Below are positions 1 to 32,810 of a DNA stretch of 37,624 nt, piece after piece. Position 1 is the stretch's first letter, and each line of letters opens with the position of its first letter. The stretch comes from Candidatus Limnocylindria bacterium. GTDB taxonomy: Bacteria; Chloroflexota; Dormibacteria; CF-121. The position numbers were made by a program, and so were the translations under genes. Where the stretch lies: assembly GCA_035636135.1 (NCBI GenBank), contig DASPZT010000093.1, positions 1-37,624 on the forward strand. The letters are read 5' to 3'. The notes beneath the pieces are model-generated. The model saw only the letters and a program-made list of their open reading frames with translations. It was not told where the DNA came from and made no database searches.

Positions 1-105
1 CTGCGTGGTGCACTCCAGCGCCAGGTCGACGACTTCCGGGATTGGTCGCGAGAGGCTGGCCACCAGCTTGCGTCGAAGGAGGCCGATCGCCGGGGCCGCG
101 GGCAT
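1..105 (-). CDS. 5' end of an unidentified CDS running off the window (35 codons visible)
   Basis: Reverse-strand ATG at 105 (cat at 103-105) opens a frame that stays open to position 1 (MPAAPAIGLLRRKLVASLSRPIPEVVDLALECTTQ). Third-codon positions are mostly G/C. TGCTATACA (extended -10-like) lies on the minus strand at 123..115. Not in the ORF track because it is under 60 aa. Confidence 0.3.
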   Translation of the reverse strand, partial: MPAAPAIGLLRRKLVASLSRPIPEVVDLALECTTQ

Positions 106-254: not shown

Positions 255-1115
255 ATGCCGGAGGCGTTCGCCAACCTGCACCTGCACACCATCTTCAGTG
301 ATGGTGAGCTAGCACCCAACGAGGTGATCAGGGCCCACGCGGCCGCCGGGTTTGCGGCCATCGCCATCACCGACCACGACACGCTCGCGGGTCTGGACGC
401 CGTGGGAGCGCTCGATGGTCACGGCCTTCAAATCATTCCGGGTGTCGAGCTGTCCATTGAGGATGACCCACCGCGCGGCCTGATCGAAGTGCACCTGCTG
501 GGCTACGCGTTCCGCCTCGACGATGCCCGGCTGCGAAAACGCCTGGAAGCGGCGAGCCAGGCTCGGGAGGCGCAGAAAGTCGAGACCGTGCGACGGCTGG
601 CCGCGGCCGGCTATCCGATTACCTGGGAGGACGTGCGCGGTCGGGCCCGTGGGAACGTTGGCAAGCCGCACATCGTCGCCGCGATCGAGGCCGCCCGGCC
701 GGAGGTCGCGCGTGAGGACCTGTACAGCTTGATGGGCCCGGGGGGGATCGCCCACGTTCCGCGGGCCCAGGACCTCTCTCTAGAGGAGGGGGTGCAATTG
801 ATCCGCGGGGCGGGGGGCGTTCCAGTGCTGGCCCATCCGGGGGTGTACCGGCACGTTGCCGACATGGGCGCGACGTTCGACACCTGCGCTGCCGCTGGGG
901 TGGCCGGGTTGGAGGTGACCTATCCTCAGGATCCCAGTGATCCATACGGACCGGGCAGCCGCATGCTGATGGATCGCTTCGCCGCGGTCGCCCGGCGGTA
1001 CGGATGGCTGGCCACCGGTGGCGACGACTTCCATGGTCCGCAGGTGACACCCCTGATCCGCCTCGCGGCCTGGCGGGCCACCCCGGCCGCCGTCGTCGAC
1101 GGCTTGTTGTCTTAG
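255..1115 (+). CDS. PHP-domain metal-dependent phosphoesterase (TrpH/YciV-like)
   Basis: N-terminal NLHLHTIFSDGE and AITDHDT motifs plus later HP/DFHG histidine clusters are typical of the PHP family. GC3-rich ATG ORF of 286 aa. Confidence 0.85.
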   Translation: MPEAFANLHLHTIFSDGELAPNEVIRAHAAAGFAAIAITDHDTLAGLDAVGALDGHGLQIIPGVELSIEDDPPRGLIEVHLLGYAFRLDDARLRKRLEAASQAREAQKVETVRRLAAAGYPITWEDVRGRARGNVGKPHIVAAIEAARPEVAREDLYSLMGPGGIAHVPRAQDLSLEEGVQLIRGAGGVPVLAHPGVYRHVADMGATFDTCAAAGVAGLEVTYPQDPSDPYGPGSRMLMDRFAAVARRYGWLATGGDDFHGPQVTPLIRLAAWRATPAAVVDGLLS

Positions 1116-1296
1116 CCCGGATCTACCGAATCGGGCTAGCATCTCGGGCGCGGATGCGGCCGAGCCGGGCGTCGTCTCCTGCGCGCGCTCAGTCACGCAT
1201 CGACGGATGCGCTCCCTCGCGTGCTCGTCGCCTCCTTCGGCTCGGCGCGCCCCGCATCCCGATTTGCGTCGTCCGATCGGTAGACCCGGGCTATGG
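1111..1296. repeat. MITE/REP-like palindromic intergenic element, copy A (~185 bp)
   Basis: Core 1139-1261 (gcatctcgggcgcggatgcgg...gcgccccgcatcccg) is near-identical to 2884-3016. Terminal inverted repeats are tagcccggatctaccgaatcgg (1113-1134) and ccgatcggtagacccgggcta (1273-1293). The stop codons of both convergent flanking genes (TAG 1113-1115; cta 1291-1293) lie inside the TIRs. Confidence 0.75.
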
Positions 1297-20646: not shown

Positions 20647-21375
20647 CTAAACCAGCCGGGCGCGCAGGATCCAGGCGTGGTTCAGAGTTTTCATCTCCTG
20701 CACCCGGGCGACGGGGTCGATCATGGCGGCCACCTCCTCGGGCTTGTGCAGGACCTTGAGGACCCGGAACGGTTGGGCGTTCACCACCCGCCGGACCACG
20801 AGGACCCCGGGATCGCCGGGTTCCCGCAGGCTGTCCATCAGAAGCAGTTCGCCACCGGGTCGCACCACCCGCGCGATCTCCTTGAAGGTCGCGTCGCGGG
20901 TGGCGCCGTCCAGGTGGCTCAAGACGAAGGCCATCAGGCACCGATCCATCTTGTGGTCGCCCAGCGGAATCGCCTCGGACCGGCCGAGCATCAAGCGGGC
21001 CGTCTTGCCGGCACTGGTCAGGCGCCGCCTGGTCACCGAGCGCATGGTCTCCGACGGTTCCACCACGGTGACCCGGGCGCCGGCGTTCAGACAGCGGATG
21101 GTCCAGTGTCCGCTGCCGGCGCCGACCTCGAGCAGGTCGCCCCGGGCGAAGGCGTCGACCGCGTCCGCCATCTCTTGGAGGTCACTGGCATAGCGTTTGT
21201 CGGCCTCCCGGCTGCCGTACCATTCGTGCTCGAACTGGTCGGCAATCGCCACGTAGTAGGCGTCTTGCTCGGCTCCCAGGCCTTCGCGCAAGGCGACCTG
21301 CTCCAACCGGTCGTAGGTGGCGACGATCTCGTCGTTCTTTTCGGGCGGGACGATTTTCTCTTTCATTGGTGGCAT
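20647..21375 (-). CDS. Class I SAM-dependent methyltransferase
   Basis: Motif I LLEVGAGSGHWT, followed by VTVVEPS and ELLLMD motifs. Confidence 0.85.
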   Translation of the reverse strand: MPPMKEKIVPPEKNDEIVATYDRLEQVALREGLGAEQDAYYVAIADQFEHEWYGSREADKRYASDLQEMADAVDAFARGDLLEVGAGSGHWTIRCLNAGARVTVVEPSETMRSVTRRRLTSAGKTARLMLGRSEAIPLGDHKMDRCLMAFVLSHLDGATRDATFKEIARVVRPGGELLLMDSLREPGDPGVLVVRRVVNAQPFRVLKVLHKPEEVAAMIDPVARVQEMKTLNHAWILRARLV

Positions 21376-21457
21376 TGGGCCATCGCCGGGGATCGCCTGA
21401 GTGGCGCTGGGGCGGCCGGCGGGCGCCCAACATGATACCCAAACGCGTTCCGGGGTC

Positions 21458-21491
21458 GTGACAGGCAGCTGTCAAAGACCCCTTCTAGGCT
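21458..21491 (+). promoter_or_regulatory. Palindromic operator GTGACAGGCAGCTGTCA plus a TGTCAAAG-N8-TAGGCT promoter-like arrangement (leaderless geometry)
   Basis: The palindrome at 21458-21474 is repeated at 31075-31091. TGTCAAAG (21470-77), 8 nt, then TAGGCT (21486-91) ends 6 nt before the ATG at 21498. Confidence 0.45.
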
Positions 21492-21497
21492 GCCGGT

Positions 21498-21800
21498 ATG
21501 GACAACGTCATTCCCTGGTCTCAGATCCATCCCAGCATCAAGTCGCGCTCGGCCTTCGTGGGGGTCGTGGTGATCGACCCCGAGCGTCAGCTCTGCCTCA
21601 GCGAGCTCGTCGACCTCGAGCCGGAAAGTCTGCGTGGGCCGGACGCGGCGGCCGGGGATCTGGTGGCCGCGGTGCAGCAGGCGGCGGCCCGGGTTGCCCA
21701 GGCCTATCGCGCCGCCCGCCGCGGCCAAGCTCCCGACGATTCCAACCCATCCCGACGGACGGCCGGCCTCCGCGTGCTCCCAGGCGGGGCCACCTCCTAA
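21498..21800 (+). CDS. Hypothetical protein (100 aa)
   Basis: ATG ORF with strongly G/C-biased third positions and no recognisable motif. It lies directly downstream of the palindrome/-10 arrangement. Confidence 0.55.
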   Translation: MDNVIPWSQIHPSIKSRSAFVGVVVIDPERQLCLSELVDLEPESLRGPDAAAGDLVAAVQQAAARVAQAYRAARRGQAPDDSNPSRRTAGLRVLPGGATS

Positions 21801-21838
21801 ACCGGACCCCCTGTTAAGCGCTGGCGGGCCGCTTATCC

Positions 21839-21870
21839 TTGACATTATCAACAGATTGTGGCAGAATACG
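21839..21870 (+). promoter_or_regulatory. Conserved ~30-nt block (GACATTAT-N7-TTGTGGC-AGAATACG), copy 1, overlapping TTGACA-17-CAGAAT
   Basis: gacattatcaacagattgtggc--agaatacg (21841-21870) compares with gacattatagaaggttgtggctgggaatacg (26941-26971). TTGACA at 21839-44 lies 17 nt from CAGAAT at 21862-67. Confidence 0.45.
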
Positions 21871-22070
21871 ACCAGCGCGACATCGAGAAGGCGGCGAGAG
21901 AACAGGGATTCCGCATTGGGCGAACCAAGAAGGGTCATCCGGTTTTCTATCCCCCGGATCCCAGAATGGGGCCAGTCTTCGGATCTGGCACGCCCTCGGA
22001 CGTGCGCTCGGTGAGGAATCTCCTCGCCAAGCTTCGCCAGGCAGGACTGGTGTGGCCACCAGGGAGGTGA
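21858..22070 (+). CDS. HicA-like (YcfA family) small protein, putative mRNA-interferase toxin
   Basis: 70 aa. ...EQGFRIGRTKKGHPVFYPP...GTPSDVRSVRNLLAKLRQAGLVW follows the HicA layout (G[FW]-x-x-x-R-x-x-GSH ... L-x-x-I-L-K-Q-A-G-L). GTG start. Noticeably more A/T-ending codons than neighbours. Confidence 0.5.
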   Translation: MAEYDQRDIEKAAREQGFRIGRTKKGHPVFYPPDPRMGPVFGSGTPSDVRSVRNLLAKLRQAGLVWPPGR

Positions 22071-22075
22071 CAGGG

Positions 22076-22558
22076 ATGACGGAGTGGAGCGTCGATATCG
22101 AGGCCGTGTCGAAAGAACGCCTTGACGAGGATTTTGCCGACGCCGTTCTTGAGGAACTCGCTCCGCATGCCCCCGCCCTGAGCATCAGCGCCAATCGGCT
22201 CGAGGCACGCTTCAGCGTTGACGCACCCTCCGCATCCCAGGCGTTTGCTCAGGCGCTCAAGCTTTTCAAGAACGCCGTGCCGGGAGCAGAGGTTGTTCGC
22301 GCACAGATCGAGACCGCCGAAGAACTCGACCGGGCGCTCGCCGCGTCCAACGTGCCCGATCTCATCGGGGTCGCCGAGTTAGCCGATCTTTTGACTGTCT
22401 CGCGCCAGCGCGCTTCGGAACTGGCGCGCATCCGCGGGTTCCCTAAGCCCTGGGTCGTCCTCAAAGCCGGTCCCGTGTGGAAACGATCCAGCGTCGCGAG
22501 ATTTGTCAGTGATTGGGCGCGCCAGCCCGGCCGGCCTCGGCGTTCCGTCGCCGTTTAA
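22076..22558 (+). CDS. HicB-like / excisionase-type HTH DNA-binding protein (putative antitoxin)
   Basis: ATG at 22076 follows aGGGAGG (22061-67), 5 nt after the HicA-like stop. C-terminal LIGVAELADLLTVSRQRASELARIRGFPKPWVVLKAGPVWKRSSVARFV is an HTH_17/Xis-like motif. The N-terminal ~85 aa form a small alpha/beta domain. Confidence 0.6.
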   Translation: MTEWSVDIEAVSKERLDEDFADAVLEELAPHAPALSISANRLEARFSVDAPSASQAFAQALKLFKNAVPGAEVVRAQIETAEELDRALAASNVPDLIGVAELADLLTVSRQRASELARIRGFPKPWVVLKAGPVWKRSSVARFVSDWARQPGRPRRSVAV

Positions 22559-22566
22559 GAAGCGGG

Positions 22567-25500
22567 CTAGGCGCTGACCTCTTCGTTGGCGACATCGGCC
22601 TGATCGCCGTTGCGGCTGGGGTCGGGCGGTGTCTGTGGCGAGGTGACCGACGGGCCCGGCAGCCGGATGATCGTCCAGTTCCCGGCCCGCTCACCCCGTT
22701 CGGCAAGGGTTTCATCCTTCGAGAAGAGCAGGATCTGGTGCTCCTGTCCGAGCCGCCCCAGCTCGTCCAGCGCCGCCTTCATTCGCCGGCGGTCGGCGTG
22801 CACCAGGGCCTCGTCCAGGAGTAGCGGCAGCGACTCGGTGCTGCCACTGATGATGCGGGCCAGGGCGACCCGCTGCAGCAGGTAAATCAGCGACCGGGTA
22901 CCCATGCTGAGGTGGTCCACATCCTTGAAGGCGCGATGATCCTGCGTGCGCACCTGCAGGCCAAGGTCGTCCATCACCTGGACTTCTCGGTAGCGCCCGT
23001 TGGTGATGGGTGCCAGCTGGCTCTGCAGCTGGGCCTTCATCTGCGGGATCACGGCTCGCCGCACCGACTTGGCGGCTTCCTCCAGGGTATCGATCGCCAG
23101 GTCGTAGGCATGGGCCTGCGCCTCCAGCTCCTGCAGCTGCTCCTGGACGGTCACCATCTCCTCCTCCAGCGAGGCGACGTCACCGATCTGGAGCAACCGG
23201 TCATTCAAGAGCTCTTCCGCTCGGGCACGCTCCTCCTGCGCTCGCTCTTTGGACGCCCGATGCTGATCCAGCTGGCGCTCGAGATCCGCCAGCGGAACCG
23301 CTCGGTATGGCTCCAGGCTGCCGGCAGCCAGGCCCTGCTGGGCTTGCTGCGACTGCCCTTCCAGCTCGCCCACCAGCTTGGCCAGTCCGGCCGTGTCCTG
23401 GTCGCCCGCTACGGCAATCTGCGAGTCGCGGAGCTCTTTGAGCCTGGCTGTGGAGGTGACGTAGGTGTCGACATGGGCCACGGCGTCATCCCAGCGCCGG
23501 GCCGACGCCTCGGGATCGGCGTCGGTGATCCCCGCGGGTCGATAGATGGCCTCCAGCTTGGCTCGGTATTGGGTGGCCTTCTCGTGCTCGGCCATGGCCC
23601 GGTCCGCCGGCTGCCGCAGCTGGTCGAGTTGCGCCTCCAGCTGCTGGATCCGGGTGCGCAGCTGCTGCGCGGCGCGTCCCGCCTCGCAGGCTCCCAGGAA
23701 ATCCTGACCGGCCGCCAGCGCTTCCCGCCGATCGAAGCCCAGCCGGTCCAGGACCCCATGCAGCCGCTGCCGGAGGGTTTCCCGCCGGTCGTCGAGCGCC
23801 TTCTCGGTTCGGGTGGCCTCTTCCCAGCGCAGCTGGGCGGCCTTCCAGGCGGCATCATCATCCGCCAGGGACTGCATCAGCTGGGCGGTTCCTTCCAGCG
23901 CGCCCTCGGTGGGTGCCGGCTGGGAAAGGCCCCAGCTGCCGATCAGCTCGCGCAAGGTGCGGCCGGCGGCGCGAGACCGTTCCTCGAGCTCCGCCGCCTG
24001 CCGGTCGAGCTCCAGGCGGGTTGCGTCGGACCGAATTCGCTGCAGGTGGTCCACCAGCGCCTGCTGCAGCTCACCGGAGCTGCGCACGCCCCACGGACCG
24101 AGAATCTCTCGACGGCGTAACCGCGCATCATCTTTGGCGCGCAGCCGCCGGTCGACCTGCCGGTTGGCCGCGCCGCGCAAGACCAGTCCCAGGATGGCCC
24201 CCAGCAGGCCCATGCCCAGCAAGAAGGCAGCCACGATAAACGCCAGCGGGCCGACACTGAGCCCGACGAACATGACCAGGAAGGCCACGGCCATCAGCAG
24301 CACGCCGACCAGCGTCACAATGCCCCAGGTCCCGTACTGGGAGCGGGAACGCTCGGCCATCGTCTCTTCGTGCCGCATCGCCTCCTCCGCCTGCTGGGCC
24401 GCCTTGATGGTCTCCGGTACCTCCTTGTAGCGAGAGACGTCCTGCTTCAGCTGCTCGAGCCGCGGGGGGAGCTCGGCCCCGGCCCGACGCCGGGCTTCGG
24501 TCGCCGCATTGCTCCGTTCCCGCCACTCCGCATAGACGCGCTGGAACTCGACGTGCCGCGACGTCCACTCGGCGCCCTGGCCGATCAGGCCCGGATGTCG
24601 ATCGGCCAGGTGCTGCACCTCGTCGGCGCCGGTGCGGGCGCGCAGGTGGGCTTCCGGCGCCTGCGCATCCATCAGACTGAGCGAGGACACCAGCTCCCGC
24701 ACCATGGGCTCTTCCTTCAGGGAGCTCGGGCTGACGCCGCGCGCGCGGGCGATCTGGCCCTGGTACTCCTGCTCGAGTTTCGCGCGCTCCGCCCCGAGCG
24801 CGGTCACTTCGGAGGCGGCCTCCGCGGCCCGGGTGGCGAATTCTCGCTCGGCTTCCTCGGTCGCCCGCCAGCGGGTGCGCAGGCCGCGCACCTCTTCGTC
24901 GCGCGCACGCGGGAAACCGGAAAAGGCGGCATGCTCGTGGAGGCGGGCATTCTCATCGGCGATCATCTGGTCGATCTGCTGCACCCGGTCCAGGCGCCGC
25001 CGGGCGTCCTCGAACCGGGCGGTCAGCACCGCCGCCTCCAGCGTCTGCACCACGGAGAGCTCGGCCTCGGTCAGGGTGGCCACCACCTCTCGCTTCTGGG
25101 CCAGCTCTTCAACCGCGCTCCGAGCCTGCCGGGCCGCGGCCAGCTGGCGTTCCAGCTCCGCCAGACGGGCGGCCAGCAGGTGCAGGGGGCCGGTTCGGCC
25201 GCGGGGGCGGCCCACCCGTTCGATCCGTTCCTGTCGCAGCCGGTCCAGGACCTTGCGGGCCGTGCGATCGGGATGGGCCGAGTCGGCCAGCGCCGTGATC
25301 GCTTCCCGGATCGCCCCCGAGTCCTCGATCCGCATGACTTCCGCTCGCGAGATGCAGGCCGTGCCCGTGAAGATGTCCTTGGGGATCCCCAGGATGCGCC
25401 GCCCCAGGGACCCGGTCTCGCCGTCGGTCAAGAAATGCGCCGTCATGTCCTCGCCGGTCTCCAGATCCTGTACGCCGACGGTCTCGCCATCGAAGTCGCG

Positions 25501-25776
25501 GTCCACCCGCAGCCGGCGGCCATCGTCCAGCTCGAACTCCAGCGCCAGCCGAAAGGCGCTGTCGTGCCACGGCCGCCACCGCTCCACGGCCGCCGCGGCG
25601 GCGGGGCCGCGCGTCTTTTCCGACTGGAAGCCATACAGGCCGGTGAGGATGGCTTCCTGCAACGTGGACTTGCCGGCCTCGTTGGGCCCGATCACCAGGT
25701 TCATCCCTTTGCCGAAACGCAAGTCGGTGGCGCGCAGCACGCCGAAGCCATCGACCTGGATGCGCGTCAGCTGCAT
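22567..25776 (-). CDS. Rad50/SbcC-like SMC-type ATPase (YhaN/AAA_27-like) with a central two-helix membrane hairpin
   Basis: Walker A GPNEAGKST, signature LSMGTRSLIYLLQRVALA and Walker B LPLLLDEALVHAD, with long Ala/Glu/Arg/Leu-rich coiled-coil arms. Residues ~484-533 (WGIVTLVGVLLMAVAFLVMFVGL / PLAFIVAAFLLGMGLLGAILGLVL) are hydrophobic; nt 24178-24327. Confidence 0.9.
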   Translation of the reverse strand: MQLTRIQVDGFGVLRATDLRFGKGMNLVIGPNEAGKSTLQEAILTGLYGFQSEKTRGPAAAAAVERWRPWHDSAFRLALEFELDDGRRLRVDRDFDGETVGVQDLETGEDMTAHFLTDGETGSLGRRILGIPKDIFTGTACISRAEVMRIEDSGAIREAITALADSAHPDRTARKVLDRLRQERIERVGRPRGRTGPLHLLAARLAELERQLAAARQARSAVEELAQKREVVATLTEAELSVVQTLEAAVLTARFEDARRRLDRVQQIDQMIADENARLHEHAAFSGFPRARDEEVRGLRTRWRATEEAEREFATRAAEAASEVTALGAERAKLEQEYQGQIARARGVSPSSLKEEPMVRELVSSLSLMDAQAPEAHLRARTGADEVQHLADRHPGLIGQGAEWTSRHVEFQRVYAEWRERSNAATEARRRAGAELPPRLEQLKQDVSRYKEVPETIKAAQQAEEAMRHEETMAERSRSQYGTWGIVTLVGVLLMAVAFLVMFVGLSVGPLAFIVAAFLLGMGLLGAILGLVLRGAANRQVDRRLRAKDDARLRRREILGPWGVRSSGELQQALVDHLQRIRSDATRLELDRQAAELEERSRAAGRTLRELIGSWGLSQPAPTEGALEGTAQLMQSLADDDAAWKAAQLRWEEATRTEKALDDRRETLRQRLHGVLDRLGFDRREALAAGQDFLGACEAGRAAQQLRTRIQQLEAQLDQLRQPADRAMAEHEKATQYRAKLEAIYRPAGITDADPEASARRWDDAVAHVDTYVTSTARLKELRDSQIAVAGDQDTAGLAKLVGELEGQSQQAQQGLAAGSLEPYRAVPLADLERQLDQHRASKERAQEERARAEELLNDRLLQIGDVASLEEEMVTVQEQLQELEAQAHAYDLAIDTLEEAAKSVRRAVIPQMKAQLQSQLAPITNGRYREVQVMDDLGLQVRTQDHRAFKDVDHLSMGTRSLIYLLQRVALARIISGSTESLPLLLDEALVHADRRRMKAALDELGRLGQEHQILLFSKDETLAERGERAGNWTIIRLPGPSVTSPQTPPDPSRNGDQADVANEEVSA

Positions 25777-25800
25777 GCTAAGCCCGGATCCACGCTAGGC

Positions 25801-26892
25801 TCATGGCTCGAAGGCATCCAGGGCCAGCTGGAGGGCGCGGCCGACCGTCTCATCTTTTTCCGCGTCGCCCCGATGGGCCTGGAGCTGCCGAACCATCTCT
25901 CCTCGGCTCGTGAATTCGCTGCCCACCGCCTCCAGGTCGTGGATCCGCCGCGTTTCGTCCAGGAATTCCAGGTGCGCGAACCCGTCATTGCACTCCAGGG
26001 CCAGCGCCCGCGGATCCAGGTCTAGCGACTGGGTTCGTTCGCCAACCAGTCGGGTGCGCAGGACGGCGCCGTCCAGGTGCCGGCTCTCGCGGGCGGCCAG
26101 CACCGCATCGCGCACCTGTTCCCGGCTGGTCATACCAGTCACGTCCAGGGTCTCCTCCACAAAGCGGCGGTGATTGATGTCCTGCAAGTCGACCGACACA
26201 TTGCGGTCATCGCCGACCGTGACCAGGGCCACGCAGTGACGGCCGGTCTCGTCCCATCCCAGCGGCTCCGGGCTTCCTGGATAGGTCAGCAATCCCTGGC
26301 TCATGGCGTTGTGGTAATGGCCGAGGAGCGCCTGGCGAAAACCCGCCCGCTCGACCTGGGCTTGCACGATGGGCGCCACCGGCGTGACGCCGTCGGGGAC
26401 CGTATGCATGTCCGAGGCGTGCAGCAGGAGCAGGTGGGCGCCATCGCCCAGCGACGGCGTGGCCGCCAGCGGGGTCTCGGAGGTGTTGGCCGGATTGAAG
26501 CCCGCCGCCCAGACGCTGACGCCGCCATAGACGTAGGGGCGAAGGTCCTCATGGGTGGCCACGGTGACATTGGCGGGCCAGCGTAGATATCGATACGGGG
26601 AGCTGGCGGTGGCCGGGTCGCTATGCCCGGGCGCGATCAACACCGGTCGAGAGGTTTGCCCCAGCGTTTGGGCCAGGAAGAGGGCGGTCTCCCGGGTGAT
26701 GTGATCATGTTCGAACAGATCACCGGCGCAGGTGATTAGATCCACCTGCTCGTGATCGGCCCGTTCGAGAATTCGCTGCAGCGCGGCCCGGAGGTCTTCG
26801 CGTCGCCGCTGTGCCGCGACCCCGAAGAGTCGCTGCGGAGCAAAGGATCGGTCGAGATGCAGGTCGGCGAAATGGAGCAGGCGAAGGGCCAA
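25801..26892 (-). CDS. Mre11/SbcD-like metallophosphoesterase nuclease (YhaO-like)
   Basis: LLHFADLHLD, CAGDLFEH, LLLHASD and LGHYHNA phosphoesterase motifs. It lies 24 nt upstream of the ATPase gene on the same strand. Confidence 0.9.
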   Translation of the reverse strand: MALRLLHFADLHLDRSFAPQRLFGVAAQRRREDLRAALQRILERADHEQVDLITCAGDLFEHDHITRETALFLAQTLGQTSRPVLIAPGHSDPATASSPYRYLRWPANVTVATHEDLRPYVYGGVSVWAAGFNPANTSETPLAATPSLGDGAHLLLLHASDMHTVPDGVTPVAPIVQAQVERAGFRQALLGHYHNAMSQGLLTYPGSPEPLGWDETGRHCVALVTVGDDRNVSVDLQDINHRRFVEETLDVTGMTSREQVRDAVLAARESRHLDGAVLRTRLVGERTQSLDLDPRALALECNDGFAHLEFLDETRRIHDLEAVGSEFTSRGEMVRQLQAHRGDAEKDETVGRALQLALDAFEP

Positions 26893-26940
26893 AGATCTCC
26901 CGCAAAGGCGAATTGCCGAGAAATTCGGTTCGAGGTTGCC

Positions 26941-26971
26941 GACATTATAGAAGGTTGTGGCTGGGAATACG
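26941..26971 (+). promoter_or_regulatory. Conserved ~30-nt block, copy 2, in the divergent nuclease/WYL intergenic region
   Basis: See 21839..21870. On the minus strand the block contains a perfect TATAAT (26949..26944), 52 nt upstream of the nuclease start. A CGAATT-N7-AATTCG inverted repeat lies at 26909-26927 and GTGACAGG at 26993-27000. Confidence 0.45.
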
Positions 26972-27003
26972 GTGTCCGCGTGAGTCCGTTAACGTGACAG
27001 GTC

Positions 27004-28068
27004 ATGGGGTCGTTTGAGAAGGGGGACCGGGGGGCTCGCATCCTCAAGATGCAGACCCTCTTGCAGGGCAACCCTCGCGGGCTGACTCGCGCGGAGCTGG
27101 CGCGCCGGACGGGGGTCACGGTTCGGACCACCTACCGTGACGTGCGGGCGCTGGAGGCGATGAACGTTCCCGTCTACGAGGAGGGCGGGCGGATCCTCAT
27201 CGATCCCAACTATTTCGTCGCCCCTGTGAAATTCACGCTGGGCGAGGCGATGGCCCTCCTCATCGGTGTCCGCCTGTGGTCGCGATACACGGATGAGGCC
27301 GACCCGGACGCCGCCGACGCGTTCAGCAAGCTGGCCGCCGTGCTCCCGGCACCGGTAGCCGAGTACGTGCACGCCACCGTCGCCCAAATGCTGAAACGCC
27401 CGGCCAACCCGGGCTACTCGCGTACCGTGCAAACCTTGGCCCTGGCGTGGGCCGGCCGCCGGGTGGCGCGCATCTGGTACCGGGCGGCCGAGGCCGACGC
27501 GCCGCCGCGGCTGATCGAGCCCTACTTTCTCGAGCCCTCCCAGATCGGCCACAGCCTCTACGTGGTGGCCCGGGATCGCGGCGTTGGCGAAATGCGCACG
27601 TTCAAGGTCGAGCGCATCGCTCGGGCGGAACTCACGGCCGACACCTATCAGATCCCACCCGACTTCGACATCAACACCTACCTGTCGCGGGCCTGGGGCA
27701 TCTTCCATTCCGGTGAGCCCGTGGAAGTCCGCCTCCGCTTCTTTCCGCCTGCCGTGGCCCGCGTCACGGAGTCGACCTGGCATCCGTCCCAGCGCCTCCG
27801 TCCGCTGTCCGATGGAACGTTGGAAATGAGCGTGACCGTGGCGGGGACGGTCGAGATCACGCCCTGGATCCTTGGCTGGGGCGAGACCGTCGAGGTGTTG
27901 GAACCACCGGACCTGCGCCTGCGCATCGTCGAAATCGGCCGCGCTCTGGCGGAGCGCCACGCCGGTGTGGGCCGCGTCCAACCGGCCAACGGCGAGACCG
28001 GTGCCCGGCCCCCGGCCGTCGGGCGGGCCGTTACAGCTCGTAGCGGGCGTGCGCCGCGGCATAGCTAG
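27004..28068 (+). CDS. HTH-WYL-WCX transcriptional regulator (PafBC/DriD/YafY-like)
   Basis: N-terminal LTRAELARRTGVTVRTTYRDVRALEAMNVPVYEE (HTH_11/DeoR-type). WYL domain RIWYRAAEADAPPRLIEPYFLEPSQIGHSLYVVARDRGVGEMRTFKVERI. C-terminal extension ending VEVLEPPDLR. Confidence 0.85.
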   Translation: MGSFEKGDRGARILKMQTLLQGNPRGLTRAELARRTGVTVRTTYRDVRALEAMNVPVYEEGGRILIDPNYFVAPVKFTLGEAMALLIGVRLWSRYTDEADPDAADAFSKLAAVLPAPVAEYVHATVAQMLKRPANPGYSRTVQTLALAWAGRRVARIWYRAAEADAPPRLIEPYFLEPSQIGHSLYVVARDRGVGEMRTFKVERIARAELTADTYQIPPDFDINTYLSRAWGIFHSGEPVEVRLRFFPPAVARVTESTWHPSQRLRPLSDGTLEMSVTVAGTVEITPWILGWGETVEVLEPPDLRLRIVEIGRALAERHAGVGRVQPANGETGARPPAVGRAVTARSGRAPRHS

Positions 28069-31074: not shown

Positions 31075-31131
31075 GTGACAGGCAGCTGTCACGACGCCCT
31101 GCTTGACTTTCGCCATGCGTCACGACAGGAT
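31075..31131 (+). promoter_or_regulatory. Second copy of the GTGACAGGCAGCTGTCA(C) palindrome followed by TTGACT-17-CAGGAT
   Basis: Palindrome at 31075-31092 (7-bp arms, 4-nt spacer). TTGACT at 31103-08 and CAGGAT at 31126-31. GAAGGAG at 31162-68 and GTG start at 31174. Confidence 0.45.
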
Positions 31132-32295: not shown

Positions 32296-32346
32296 CCCGC
32301 CCCGCGCCCAAGATGCGAGTTCGACTCGGTGGATCCGGGCTTAGCC
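32291..32346. repeat. Short (56-bp) derivative of the MITE-like element (ends only)
   Basis: cttagcccgc...cggtggatccgggcttagcc. The right end matches the copy B right end (ccgaccggtggatccggcctta). The rmuC TAG stop (32293-95) lies in the left end. Confidence 0.5.
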
Positions 32347-32810
32347 TAAAACGTCTGGAAGTGGGCCAGGCGAGCCGCCAGCAGCAGCAGGACGATGGCG
32401 CCGACCACGATCAGCATGGTTTTCTGGTCAATCATCGTCCCGGCTTTTACGGTCAGCATCTCGTCCGCCGTCGACGACAGGTCGCCATTGCTGGCCTGCA
32501 GGATATAGGTGCCGTCCTCGAGATCGGCCGGGACCTGGACCATGAGGTGGTTGGTGTCCGGGGCCTCAATGGTCGTGGCCGCACGACCGCCGATCACCAC
32601 CCGGGTCGTGGTGGCCAGGTTCTGGCCGATGAGGACGATGTTTGGCTGGACCTTGAGGTTGATCGTGGCGGGGCTGACCATGAAGACCTTCGGGGTCTTC
32701 CGCGGGGTGGCCGCGGTGGGGTGATCGACGGCGGCAGCCGAGGTCACCGTGCACGCCAGGGCGAACCCCAGGAGCATGGTGGCCGCCAGCAGACGTCGTC
32801 CGACCTTCAT
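32346..32810 (-). CDS. Secreted, C-terminally membrane-anchored protein with an Ig-like (IPT/TIG-like) domain
   Basis: Signal peptide MKVGRRLLAATMLLGFALACT, a beta-rich middle (VSPATINLKVQPNIVLIGQNLATTTRVVIGG...) and a C-terminal TM helix (LIVVGAIVLLLLAARLA). gaggaag SD. Confidence 0.6.
   Translation of the reverse strand: MKVGRRLLAATMLLGFALACTVTSAAAVDHPTAATPRKTPKVFMVSPATINLKVQPNIVLIGQNLATTTRVVIGGRAATTIEAPDTNHLMVQVPADLEDGTYILQASNGDLSSTADEMLTVKAGTMIDQKTMLIVVGAIVLLLLAARLAHFQTF

Follow-up and report, generated by a model that had tools for sequence, protein, structure and literature searches.

The window, that is, the whole stretch of 37,624 nucleotides that was analysed, contains an operon with genes for an sbcD-like phosphoesterase and an sbcC/Rad50-like ATPase, and divergent from it a gene for a HTH-WYL-WCX regulator. 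The 3' end of sbcC is adjoined by an accessory cassette of about 0.76 kb, which carries two genes, encoding a weakly HicA-like protein and a partner protein. A short block of similar sequence is found twice in this region, once in the cassette and once in the spacer between the sbcD-like and WYL genes. The features that are discussed below are the following:

21809-22566, plus strand: accessory cassette, absent in the sister genome G001 and without its 5' part in the sister genome G002 (window 21808-22335)
21837-21853, no strand assigned: degenerate inverted repeat CCTTGA-cattA-TCAACA over the -35 element; in relatives it is perfect, CCTTGA-N5-TCAAGG or TTGAC-N3-GTCAA
21839-21844, plus strand: predicted -35 hexamer TTGACA of a P2-like cassette promoter, scoring 10/12 in the promoter scan
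21841-21870, plus strand: copy 1 of the block, GACATTAT-caacaga-TTGTGGC-a-GAATACG
21857-21867, plus strand: TGTGG extension and predicted -10 CAGAAT (21862-21867), with TG preceding the -10 and a spacer of 17 nt
21858-22070, plus strand: HicA-like open reading frame (ORF) of 70 aa, with GTG 21858 as the only in-frame start and no Shine-Dalgarno sequence
22076-22558, plus strand: partner protein of 160 aa, modelled as a ferredoxin-like N-domain and a C-terminal winged-HTH (wHTH), with a strong AGGGAGG ribosome site
22567-26892, minus strand: sbcD-like phosphoesterase (26892-25801) and sbcC/Rad50-like ATPase (25776-22567), assigned by Pfam/NCBIfam matches
26941-26971, plus strand: copy 2 of the block, GACATTAT-agaagg-TTGTGGC-tgg-GAATACG, in the 111-nt spacer between the sbcD-like and WYL genes
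26944-26949, minus strand: TATAAT, putative -10 for the sbcD/sbcC-like genes, found in each of 24 family genomes
26990-26995, plus strand: TAACGT, probable -10 for WYL transcription, 8 nt from ATG 27004, a leaderless-like arrangement
26994-27001, plus strand: GTGACAGG, a perfect half-site of the palindrome GTGACAG-N4-CTGTCAC, between the WYL -10 and the WYL ATG
27004-28068, plus strand: HTH-WYL-WCX regulator gene, about 70% identical in 23/24 family genomes and always divergent from sbcD

The two copies of the block are 5.1 kb apart in direct orientation and flank one gene cluster. They share three identical words, GACATTAT, TTGTGGC and GAATACG (boxes 1, 2 and 3), which are separated by 7 and 1 nt in copy 1 versus 6 and 3 nt in copy 2. 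The first-pass annotation had described the block at these positions with 25 of 30 identical bases; the positions are correct, but the alignment takes two indels, with 25 of its 32 columns matching and an edit distance of 7. Its transcript of copy 2 also contained one 't' too many compared with the actual sequence, and copy 1, which had been placed just 5' of a gene start, in fact encloses the only in-frame start, GTG 21858. In the assembly (2.57 Mb, 427 contigs, 67% GC), exact and fuzzy searches tolerating 1-2 mismatches per box returned these two sites only, and the block is therefore not a generic repeat scattered through the genome, the outcome that the first-pass annotation had named as counting against its observation. 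The sister genomes G001 and G002 of the same genus have one motif site each, corresponding to copy 2, and a scan of 43 family genomes found the block motif in none of the 40 others, so that it is confined to the genus. A pattern scan of metagenomes gave 30 matches, of which all high-GC ones belong to the same species or genus and the remaining ones, in low-GC contigs, are chance matches. Because all full-block sequences come from the same species or genus, a comparison of conservation between boxes and spacers has no statistical power.

In the boxes of the block, neither dyad nor direct-repeat symmetry was found. A first alternative is that the block functions in RNA, either as a 5' leader shared by both transcripts or as the target of a small RNA (UUGUGGC...GAAUACG); CATTAT in box 1, read as a plus-strand -10 element, would then start both transcripts near box 2. 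This -10 reading is not conserved in cassette relatives, the block has no match in Rfam at gathering or E-value thresholds, and predicted folding on both strands of both blocks is weaker than that of shuffled sequences (z of +0.8 to +1.9, and of -0.09), which makes an RNA-level function extremely improbable. Known binding sites were also compared with the block by eye. Sigma-54, ECF-type, DnaA-box, Fur-box and IHF readings each fit at most one copy and therefore do not explain the sharing.

The first-pass annotation considered the resemblance unlikely by chance, which holds for the pair when chosen beforehand but not for a scan of the whole window. In composition-preserving shuffles of copy 1 compared with the 111-nt sbcD-WYL spacer, only 1 of 40,000 trials reached an edit distance of 7 or less, corresponding to a likelihood by chance of about 2.5e-5 for the pair tested alone, and the local alignment score of the pair is 28 against a null of 13.9 +/- 2.2. 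When the 90 AT-rich islands of the window are compared all-against-all, the pair ranks 3rd of 7,996 comparisons, in a continuous tail with 14, 4, 3, 1, 1 and 1 comparisons at scores of 24, 25, 26, 27, 28 and 30, respectively. The pair is striking on its own and no outlier in the window-wide scan. The top-ranked island pair is a true paralogy, and the sbcD-WYL spacer also matches an antisense stretch within rmuC with a score of 26. Genome-wide, copy 1 has 4 unrelated matches at distance 8 and 29 at distance 9. In a 37-kb window of a 67% GC genome, the best chance matches can be as good as this 25/32 match between AT-rich promoter regions.

The second-best island pair (score 30) has the sequence AGCCCGGATC(T/C)ACCGA(A/G)TC and is located at window positions 1092-1143 and 32323-32372, inverted. 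Both spots are apparently intergenic, in opposite orientation.

Compared with G001, the window has 21765-22567 as extra sequence, and compared with G002, 21808-22335; G002 retains only the 3' end of the 160-aa gene. The gene pair of the cassette is also present at an unlinked site in the Chloroflexota genome G030, in MAGs of Methylomirabilota and Acidobacteria, and in metagenome contigs that have no assigned origin; about 110 members of the HicA-like family have been detected in the same groups (Chloroflexota, Methylomirabilota and Acidobacteria MAGs and unassigned metagenome contigs). The cassette would be a small, horizontally mobile HicA-like/wHTH unit. Copy 2 is kept in both sister genomes. 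An att site or terminal repeat was also considered for the block and rejected: the cassette ends at about 21809 and 22566, and copy 2 lies 4.4 kb past the right end and is present in cassette-free G001.

The 70-aa ORF scores 13.6 bits against Pfam HicA_toxin and its relative L043 scores 18 bits, both below the cut-off of 27. Its AF2 (AlphaFold) model (pLDDT 78.6) has an alpha-beta-beta-(beta)-alpha fold, with HicA of B. pseudomallei (6g26_F) as the best PDB match (TM 0.59/0.66, probability 0.89, E 0.29). Several relatives are labelled 'YcfA/HicA-like' by JGI, and the G-H position is present in the 70-aa ORF and missing from some relatives. Profile and model together suggest a protein that is weakly HicA-like. 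The model of the 160-aa partner (pLDDT 82) consists of a ferredoxin-like beta-alpha-beta-beta-alpha-beta domain and a wHTH; the protein has no Pfam or NCBIfam match, and no HicB was found among the best 50 PDB matches listed for the model. As the partner has no recognizable HicB N-terminal domain and does not appear to be a HicB, the cassette would pair a HicA-like protein with a non-canonical partner. In L067, a metagenome contig of the same species, the toxin ORF and the -10 element differ from the window at 8 sites in 213 nt, including two frameshifts caused by 1-nt insertions and two changes that hit the -10, and the HTH gene differs by 1 change in 488 nt. This pattern may reflect decay of the toxin gene or a local assembly error.

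Copy 1 is predicted to be a sigma-70-type promoter of the cassette. It combines a -35 element, a spacer within 16-18 nt and a -10 element with A at position 2 and T at position 6, and its position is conserved in orthologous cassettes. TTGACA-17-CAGAAT with its TG extension (10/12) is the sole such site in the 1.4 kb from 21300 to 22700, and TTGACW-16..18-YAnnWT occurs at just 25 sites in the whole assembly. A TTGAyw -35 element is found in the same register in 11/11 cassette relatives, and the -10 CAGAAT is identical in L083, L085, L086 and L090. In 10/11 relatives from other organisms, the cassette promoter has the same position and its -10 shares 2 nt with the toxin ATG, such that the last two bases of the -10 and a following G form the annotated ATG, for example in CAGAATG. 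In addition, seven cassette relatives have a second promoter 27-45 nt further upstream. This upstream promoter is missing in the window, since the left edge of the cassette (21809-21831) leaves no space for it. Where close relatives read CAGAATG, the window reads CAGAATACG and the family ATG is lost. The ORF of the window opens at GTG 21858, between the -35 and -10 elements and without a ribosome-binding site, and the predicted transcript start, near A 21874, is downstream of this GTG. The odd GTG start can be explained by the loss, in the lineage of the window, of a family ATG that was embedded in the -10. The suspicion in the first-pass annotation that a GTG inside copy 1 points to an atypical arrangement was therefore justified.

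The cassette relatives L083, L085 and L086 (upstream of 67-aa genes), L043 and L044 carry two or three tandem 'tCCTTGAC' promoter/operator modules, the last of which contains the HicA-like ATG within its -10 (..AATG). The pattern TGTGnTAnnnT is found at 17 sites in the genome, no more than in scrambled controls (14-25). Nine of the 17 read TGTGCTA, one of them upstream of lexA (contig C282, about 950-965), and TGTGCTAnnnT may be the preferred extended -10 of the organism.

The inverted repeat over the -35 element is presumed to be the autoregulatory operator of the cassette. A further alternative is that the cassette wHTH protein binds both blocks, regulating its own promoter and cross-regulating sbcDC and WYL. 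HTH proteins of the antitoxin type commonly bind the promoter from which they are expressed (PMC11594946), and copy 1 overlaps the inverted repeat of the cassette family. However, a dyad like the family operator (CCTTGA-N5-TCAAGG or TTGAC-N3-GTCAA) is absent from copy 2, which is also identical in G001, where the wHTH protein is missing. Binding of both blocks by the wHTH protein is consequently very unlikely.

The origin of the matching bases was examined by aligning copy 1 (40 positions) with ten cassette relatives. At 30 of the 40 positions, copy 1 carries the base that is common to at least half of the ten relatives, and 21 of the 28 copy 1 bases that match copy 2 are such bases. Copy 2 matches 21/30 of the cassette-family positions versus 7/10 of the lineage-specific positions (Fisher p = 1). 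The promoters of other cassettes show no resemblance to the sbcD-WYL spacer (p 0.2-0.98), and the likeness is therefore specific to the co-resident pair; copy 2 as a fossil cassette promoter was rejected on the same grounds. A likeness limited to two sites 5.1 kb apart in direct orientation, which foreign cassette promoters lack, could have arisen by local copying: in an ancestor of the genus, duplication or conversion would have carried a short patch from the sbcD-WYL spacer to the cassette promoter or the reverse, and the patch would since have decayed in the spacers between the boxes. Yet the matches are not concentrated at the lineage-specific positions of copy 1, and its -35, part of its spacer and its -10 are orthologous to cassettes in other phyla. 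Some of the sequence in the words of copy 2 is ancestral in the family, an identity of 20-30 nt that could seed homologous exchange is absent, and the cassette boundaries do not coincide with the blocks. As most of the matching bases are those usual in the cassette family, local conversion and directed convergence are disfavoured, and local copying is considered unlikely.

Copy 2 is part of a different kind of control region. ATTATA, which is TATAAT on the minus strand, is found exactly once in the sbcD-WYL spacer of 24/24 family genomes; the sbcD start is 52-68 nt away from it and the WYL start 48-174 nt. Since the distance to sbcD is fixed and that to WYL variable, this TATAAT is probably the -10 of the sbcDC-like operon, which agrees with the proposal in the first-pass annotation that the minus strand of copy 2 could provide the -10 of the nuclease operon. 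In relatives, the start codon of the WYL gene is preceded, at 6-12 nt, by TAnnnT (TAnACT or TAACTT). In copy 2, the two -10 elements enclose boxes 2 and 3, in the stretch expected to hold the -35 elements of both promoters; no resemblance to TTGACA is seen in either of these divergent -35 regions. A plus-strand sigma-70 promoter was not found in copy 2 in a scan of 26700-27200: CCGACA-18-GGGAAT lacks the A at -10 position 2, and the 2-nt insertion in copy 2 disrupts the relation between TGTGG and -10 that is seen in copy 1. In the orthologous spacers of other genera ATTATA persists, and boxes 2 and 3 persist partly (GGTTG.G, GAAT).

The leader of sbcD shows its own conservation pattern. It is strongly conserved in genera g5 and g2, with the sequence cgaattgtgcctggcgcgatggcataagcgagcgcgaaagcagcgcc (for example in L006-L011, with about 65 nt from ATTATA to sbcD). 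In the genus of the window (26893-26943) the leader is shorter and different, with a CGAATT...AATTCG hairpin. A match to the sbcD leader was not found in Rfam.

The same region raises the question of which site is recognized by the WYL regulator. The palindrome GTGACAG-N4-CTGTCAC is present at at least 10 sites in the genome, two of which, 21458-21475 and 31075-31092, are within 6 kb of the WYL gene; others are in contigs C77, C97, C136, C145, C179, C209, C289, C318, C349 and C407. At several palindromes TGTC is found 16 nt before TAnnnT (TGTC-N12-TAnnnT), for example with TAGGCT at 21486-91, 6 nt before ATG 21498, and more distant WYL orthologues have GCGACA-N6-8-TGTCGC upstream. This geometry of TGTC and TAnnnT resembles that of the mycobacterial PafBC-dependent RecA-NDp motif, for which Gamulin and colleagues reportedly gave the consensus TGTCRGTG-N8-TAnnnT in 2004. 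The palindrome is more likely than the block to be the WYL site and fits the WYL regulator better, because the block lacks symmetry or a fixed spacing. As a LexA gene is also present in the genome, the assignment of the palindrome to the WYL protein is one that we infer.

The strongest alternative to a coincidental likeness is a shared operator, in which a host protein (WYL or another) recognizes the three boxes at both sites and co-regulates the cassette, the sbcDC-like operon and the WYL gene. The pairwise similarity is nominally significant, and the two copies face the same way on either side of a single gene cluster. The three words are perfect and the differences are concentrated in the spacers, which is the pattern of protein-contacted boxes and speaks against coincidence. 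The restriction of the likeness to the co-resident pair and the partial persistence of boxes 2 and 3 in the spacers of other genera point the same way. Also, box 3 of copy 2 is placed where the divergent -35 elements fall, neither of them TTGACA-like, which fits an activator-dependent design such as that of PafBC targets (PMC9186387), and the Rv1955-57 toxin-antitoxin (TA) operon of M. tuberculosis, which is under a WYL-dependent damage promoter, provides a precedent (PMC2897130). Against this, there are two sites only in the genome, with no regulon and no sites in other family genomes, and the gaps between the boxes are unequal in the two copies (-1 and +2 nt). DriD and BrxR recognize palindromic sites, whereas the boxes have neither dyad nor direct-repeat symmetry. 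G001 has an unchanged copy 2 despite the absence of the cassette, and in one strain boxes 2 and 3 of copy 1 carry two substitutions. Bases common to at least half of the cassette relatives make up most of the matching bases of copy 1, and GTGACAG-N4-CTGTCAC is the better candidate for the WYL site. For the block, neither a dyad nor a fixed distance between motif and -10 was found, nor recurrence, nor conservation in orthologous spacers. The first-pass annotation had implied a common operator, possibly for WYL, in front of both genes; with two sites, an accessory cassette, unequal spacing, no dyad and no plus-strand promoter in copy 2, this idea was not upheld, and a shared operator is regarded as doubtful. 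A variant in which the cassette promoter acquired host boxes after entry, such that a host factor would co-regulate a domesticated TA remnant (mainly the wHTH protein) with the double-strand-break repair operon, is rather improbable.

The preferred reading, to which a probability of roughly 55% is assigned, is that each block is the core promoter region of its own transcription unit, that the two units are unrelated, and that the likeness of the blocks is largely coincidental. Copy 1 would be the cassette's own promoter and copy 2 the control region from which the sbcDC-like operon and the WYL gene are transcribed in opposite directions. In the relatives, the transcript of the proximal promoter would begin after the toxin ATG and thus express the HTH partner only; in the lineage of the window, the upstream promoter would have gone and the ATG been lost, with the ORF now opening at GTG. 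Box 1 of copy 2 would hold the sbcDC -10, and boxes 2 and 3 would fall within the spacer and the -35 region of the sbcDC promoter and upstream of TAACGT. A common factor for both blocks would not be required.

The organization of the cassette resembles that of known systems. In E. coli hicAB, the promoter P2 gives an antitoxin-only transcript and is repressed by HicB, according to the work of Turnbull and Gerdes as reviewed in PMC11594946. As in that account, the unit described here is a toxin-first two-gene unit with tandem promoters (here in the relatives), and the downstream promoter has a palindromic operator and a start that would be too late for the toxin start (PMC11594946). In contrast to E. 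coli hicAB, the arrangement is predicted here from sequence comparison, and the -10 of the relatives physically overlaps the ATG. Also unlike hicAB, the cassette partner has a ferredoxin-like N-domain and a wHTH and is not a recognizable HicB, the toxin reaches HicA below threshold only, and the window is without P1 and ATG. In M. tuberculosis, the higBA-type Rv1955-Rv1957 operon has a RecA-NDp, PafBC-dependent promoter inside an annotated ORF (PMC2897130). The cassette is similar to it in being a two-promoter TA-like operon with one promoter downstream of the annotated start, and Rv1955-Rv1957 is linked to a WYL-regulated damage response (PMC2897130). The block, however, has no RecA-NDp-like geometry, and a link of the cassette to the WYL regulator is unlikely. 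The sites of DriD and BrxR are palindromes, and the PafBC motif is located at a fixed distance upstream of the -10 (PMC9186387, PMC6789036). As for DriD, PafBC and BrxR, the HTH-WYL-WCX protein of the window is divergent from its probable target genes, and the promoters are without a good -35. Unlike the sites of these three regulators, the block is neither a palindrome nor a fixed-distance motif, and GTGACAG-N4-CTGTCAC fits better.

The block itself is apparently ordinary, as each copy can be explained as the promoter core of its own unit and the evidence does not support a shared regulatory element. Such an element, if true, would have tied a TA-like cassette to a WYL-controlled repair operon. 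If the acquisition of host boxes were true, a mobile cassette would have been wired into a DNA-damage circuit, comparable to M. tuberculosis higBA under its PafBC-dependent promoter. The puzzling start codon is accounted for by a family ATG that lies within the promoter -10 and is lost here. The 'antitoxin-only internal promoter' design of E. coli hicAB appears to be hard-wired into the sequence in 10/11 relatives examined.
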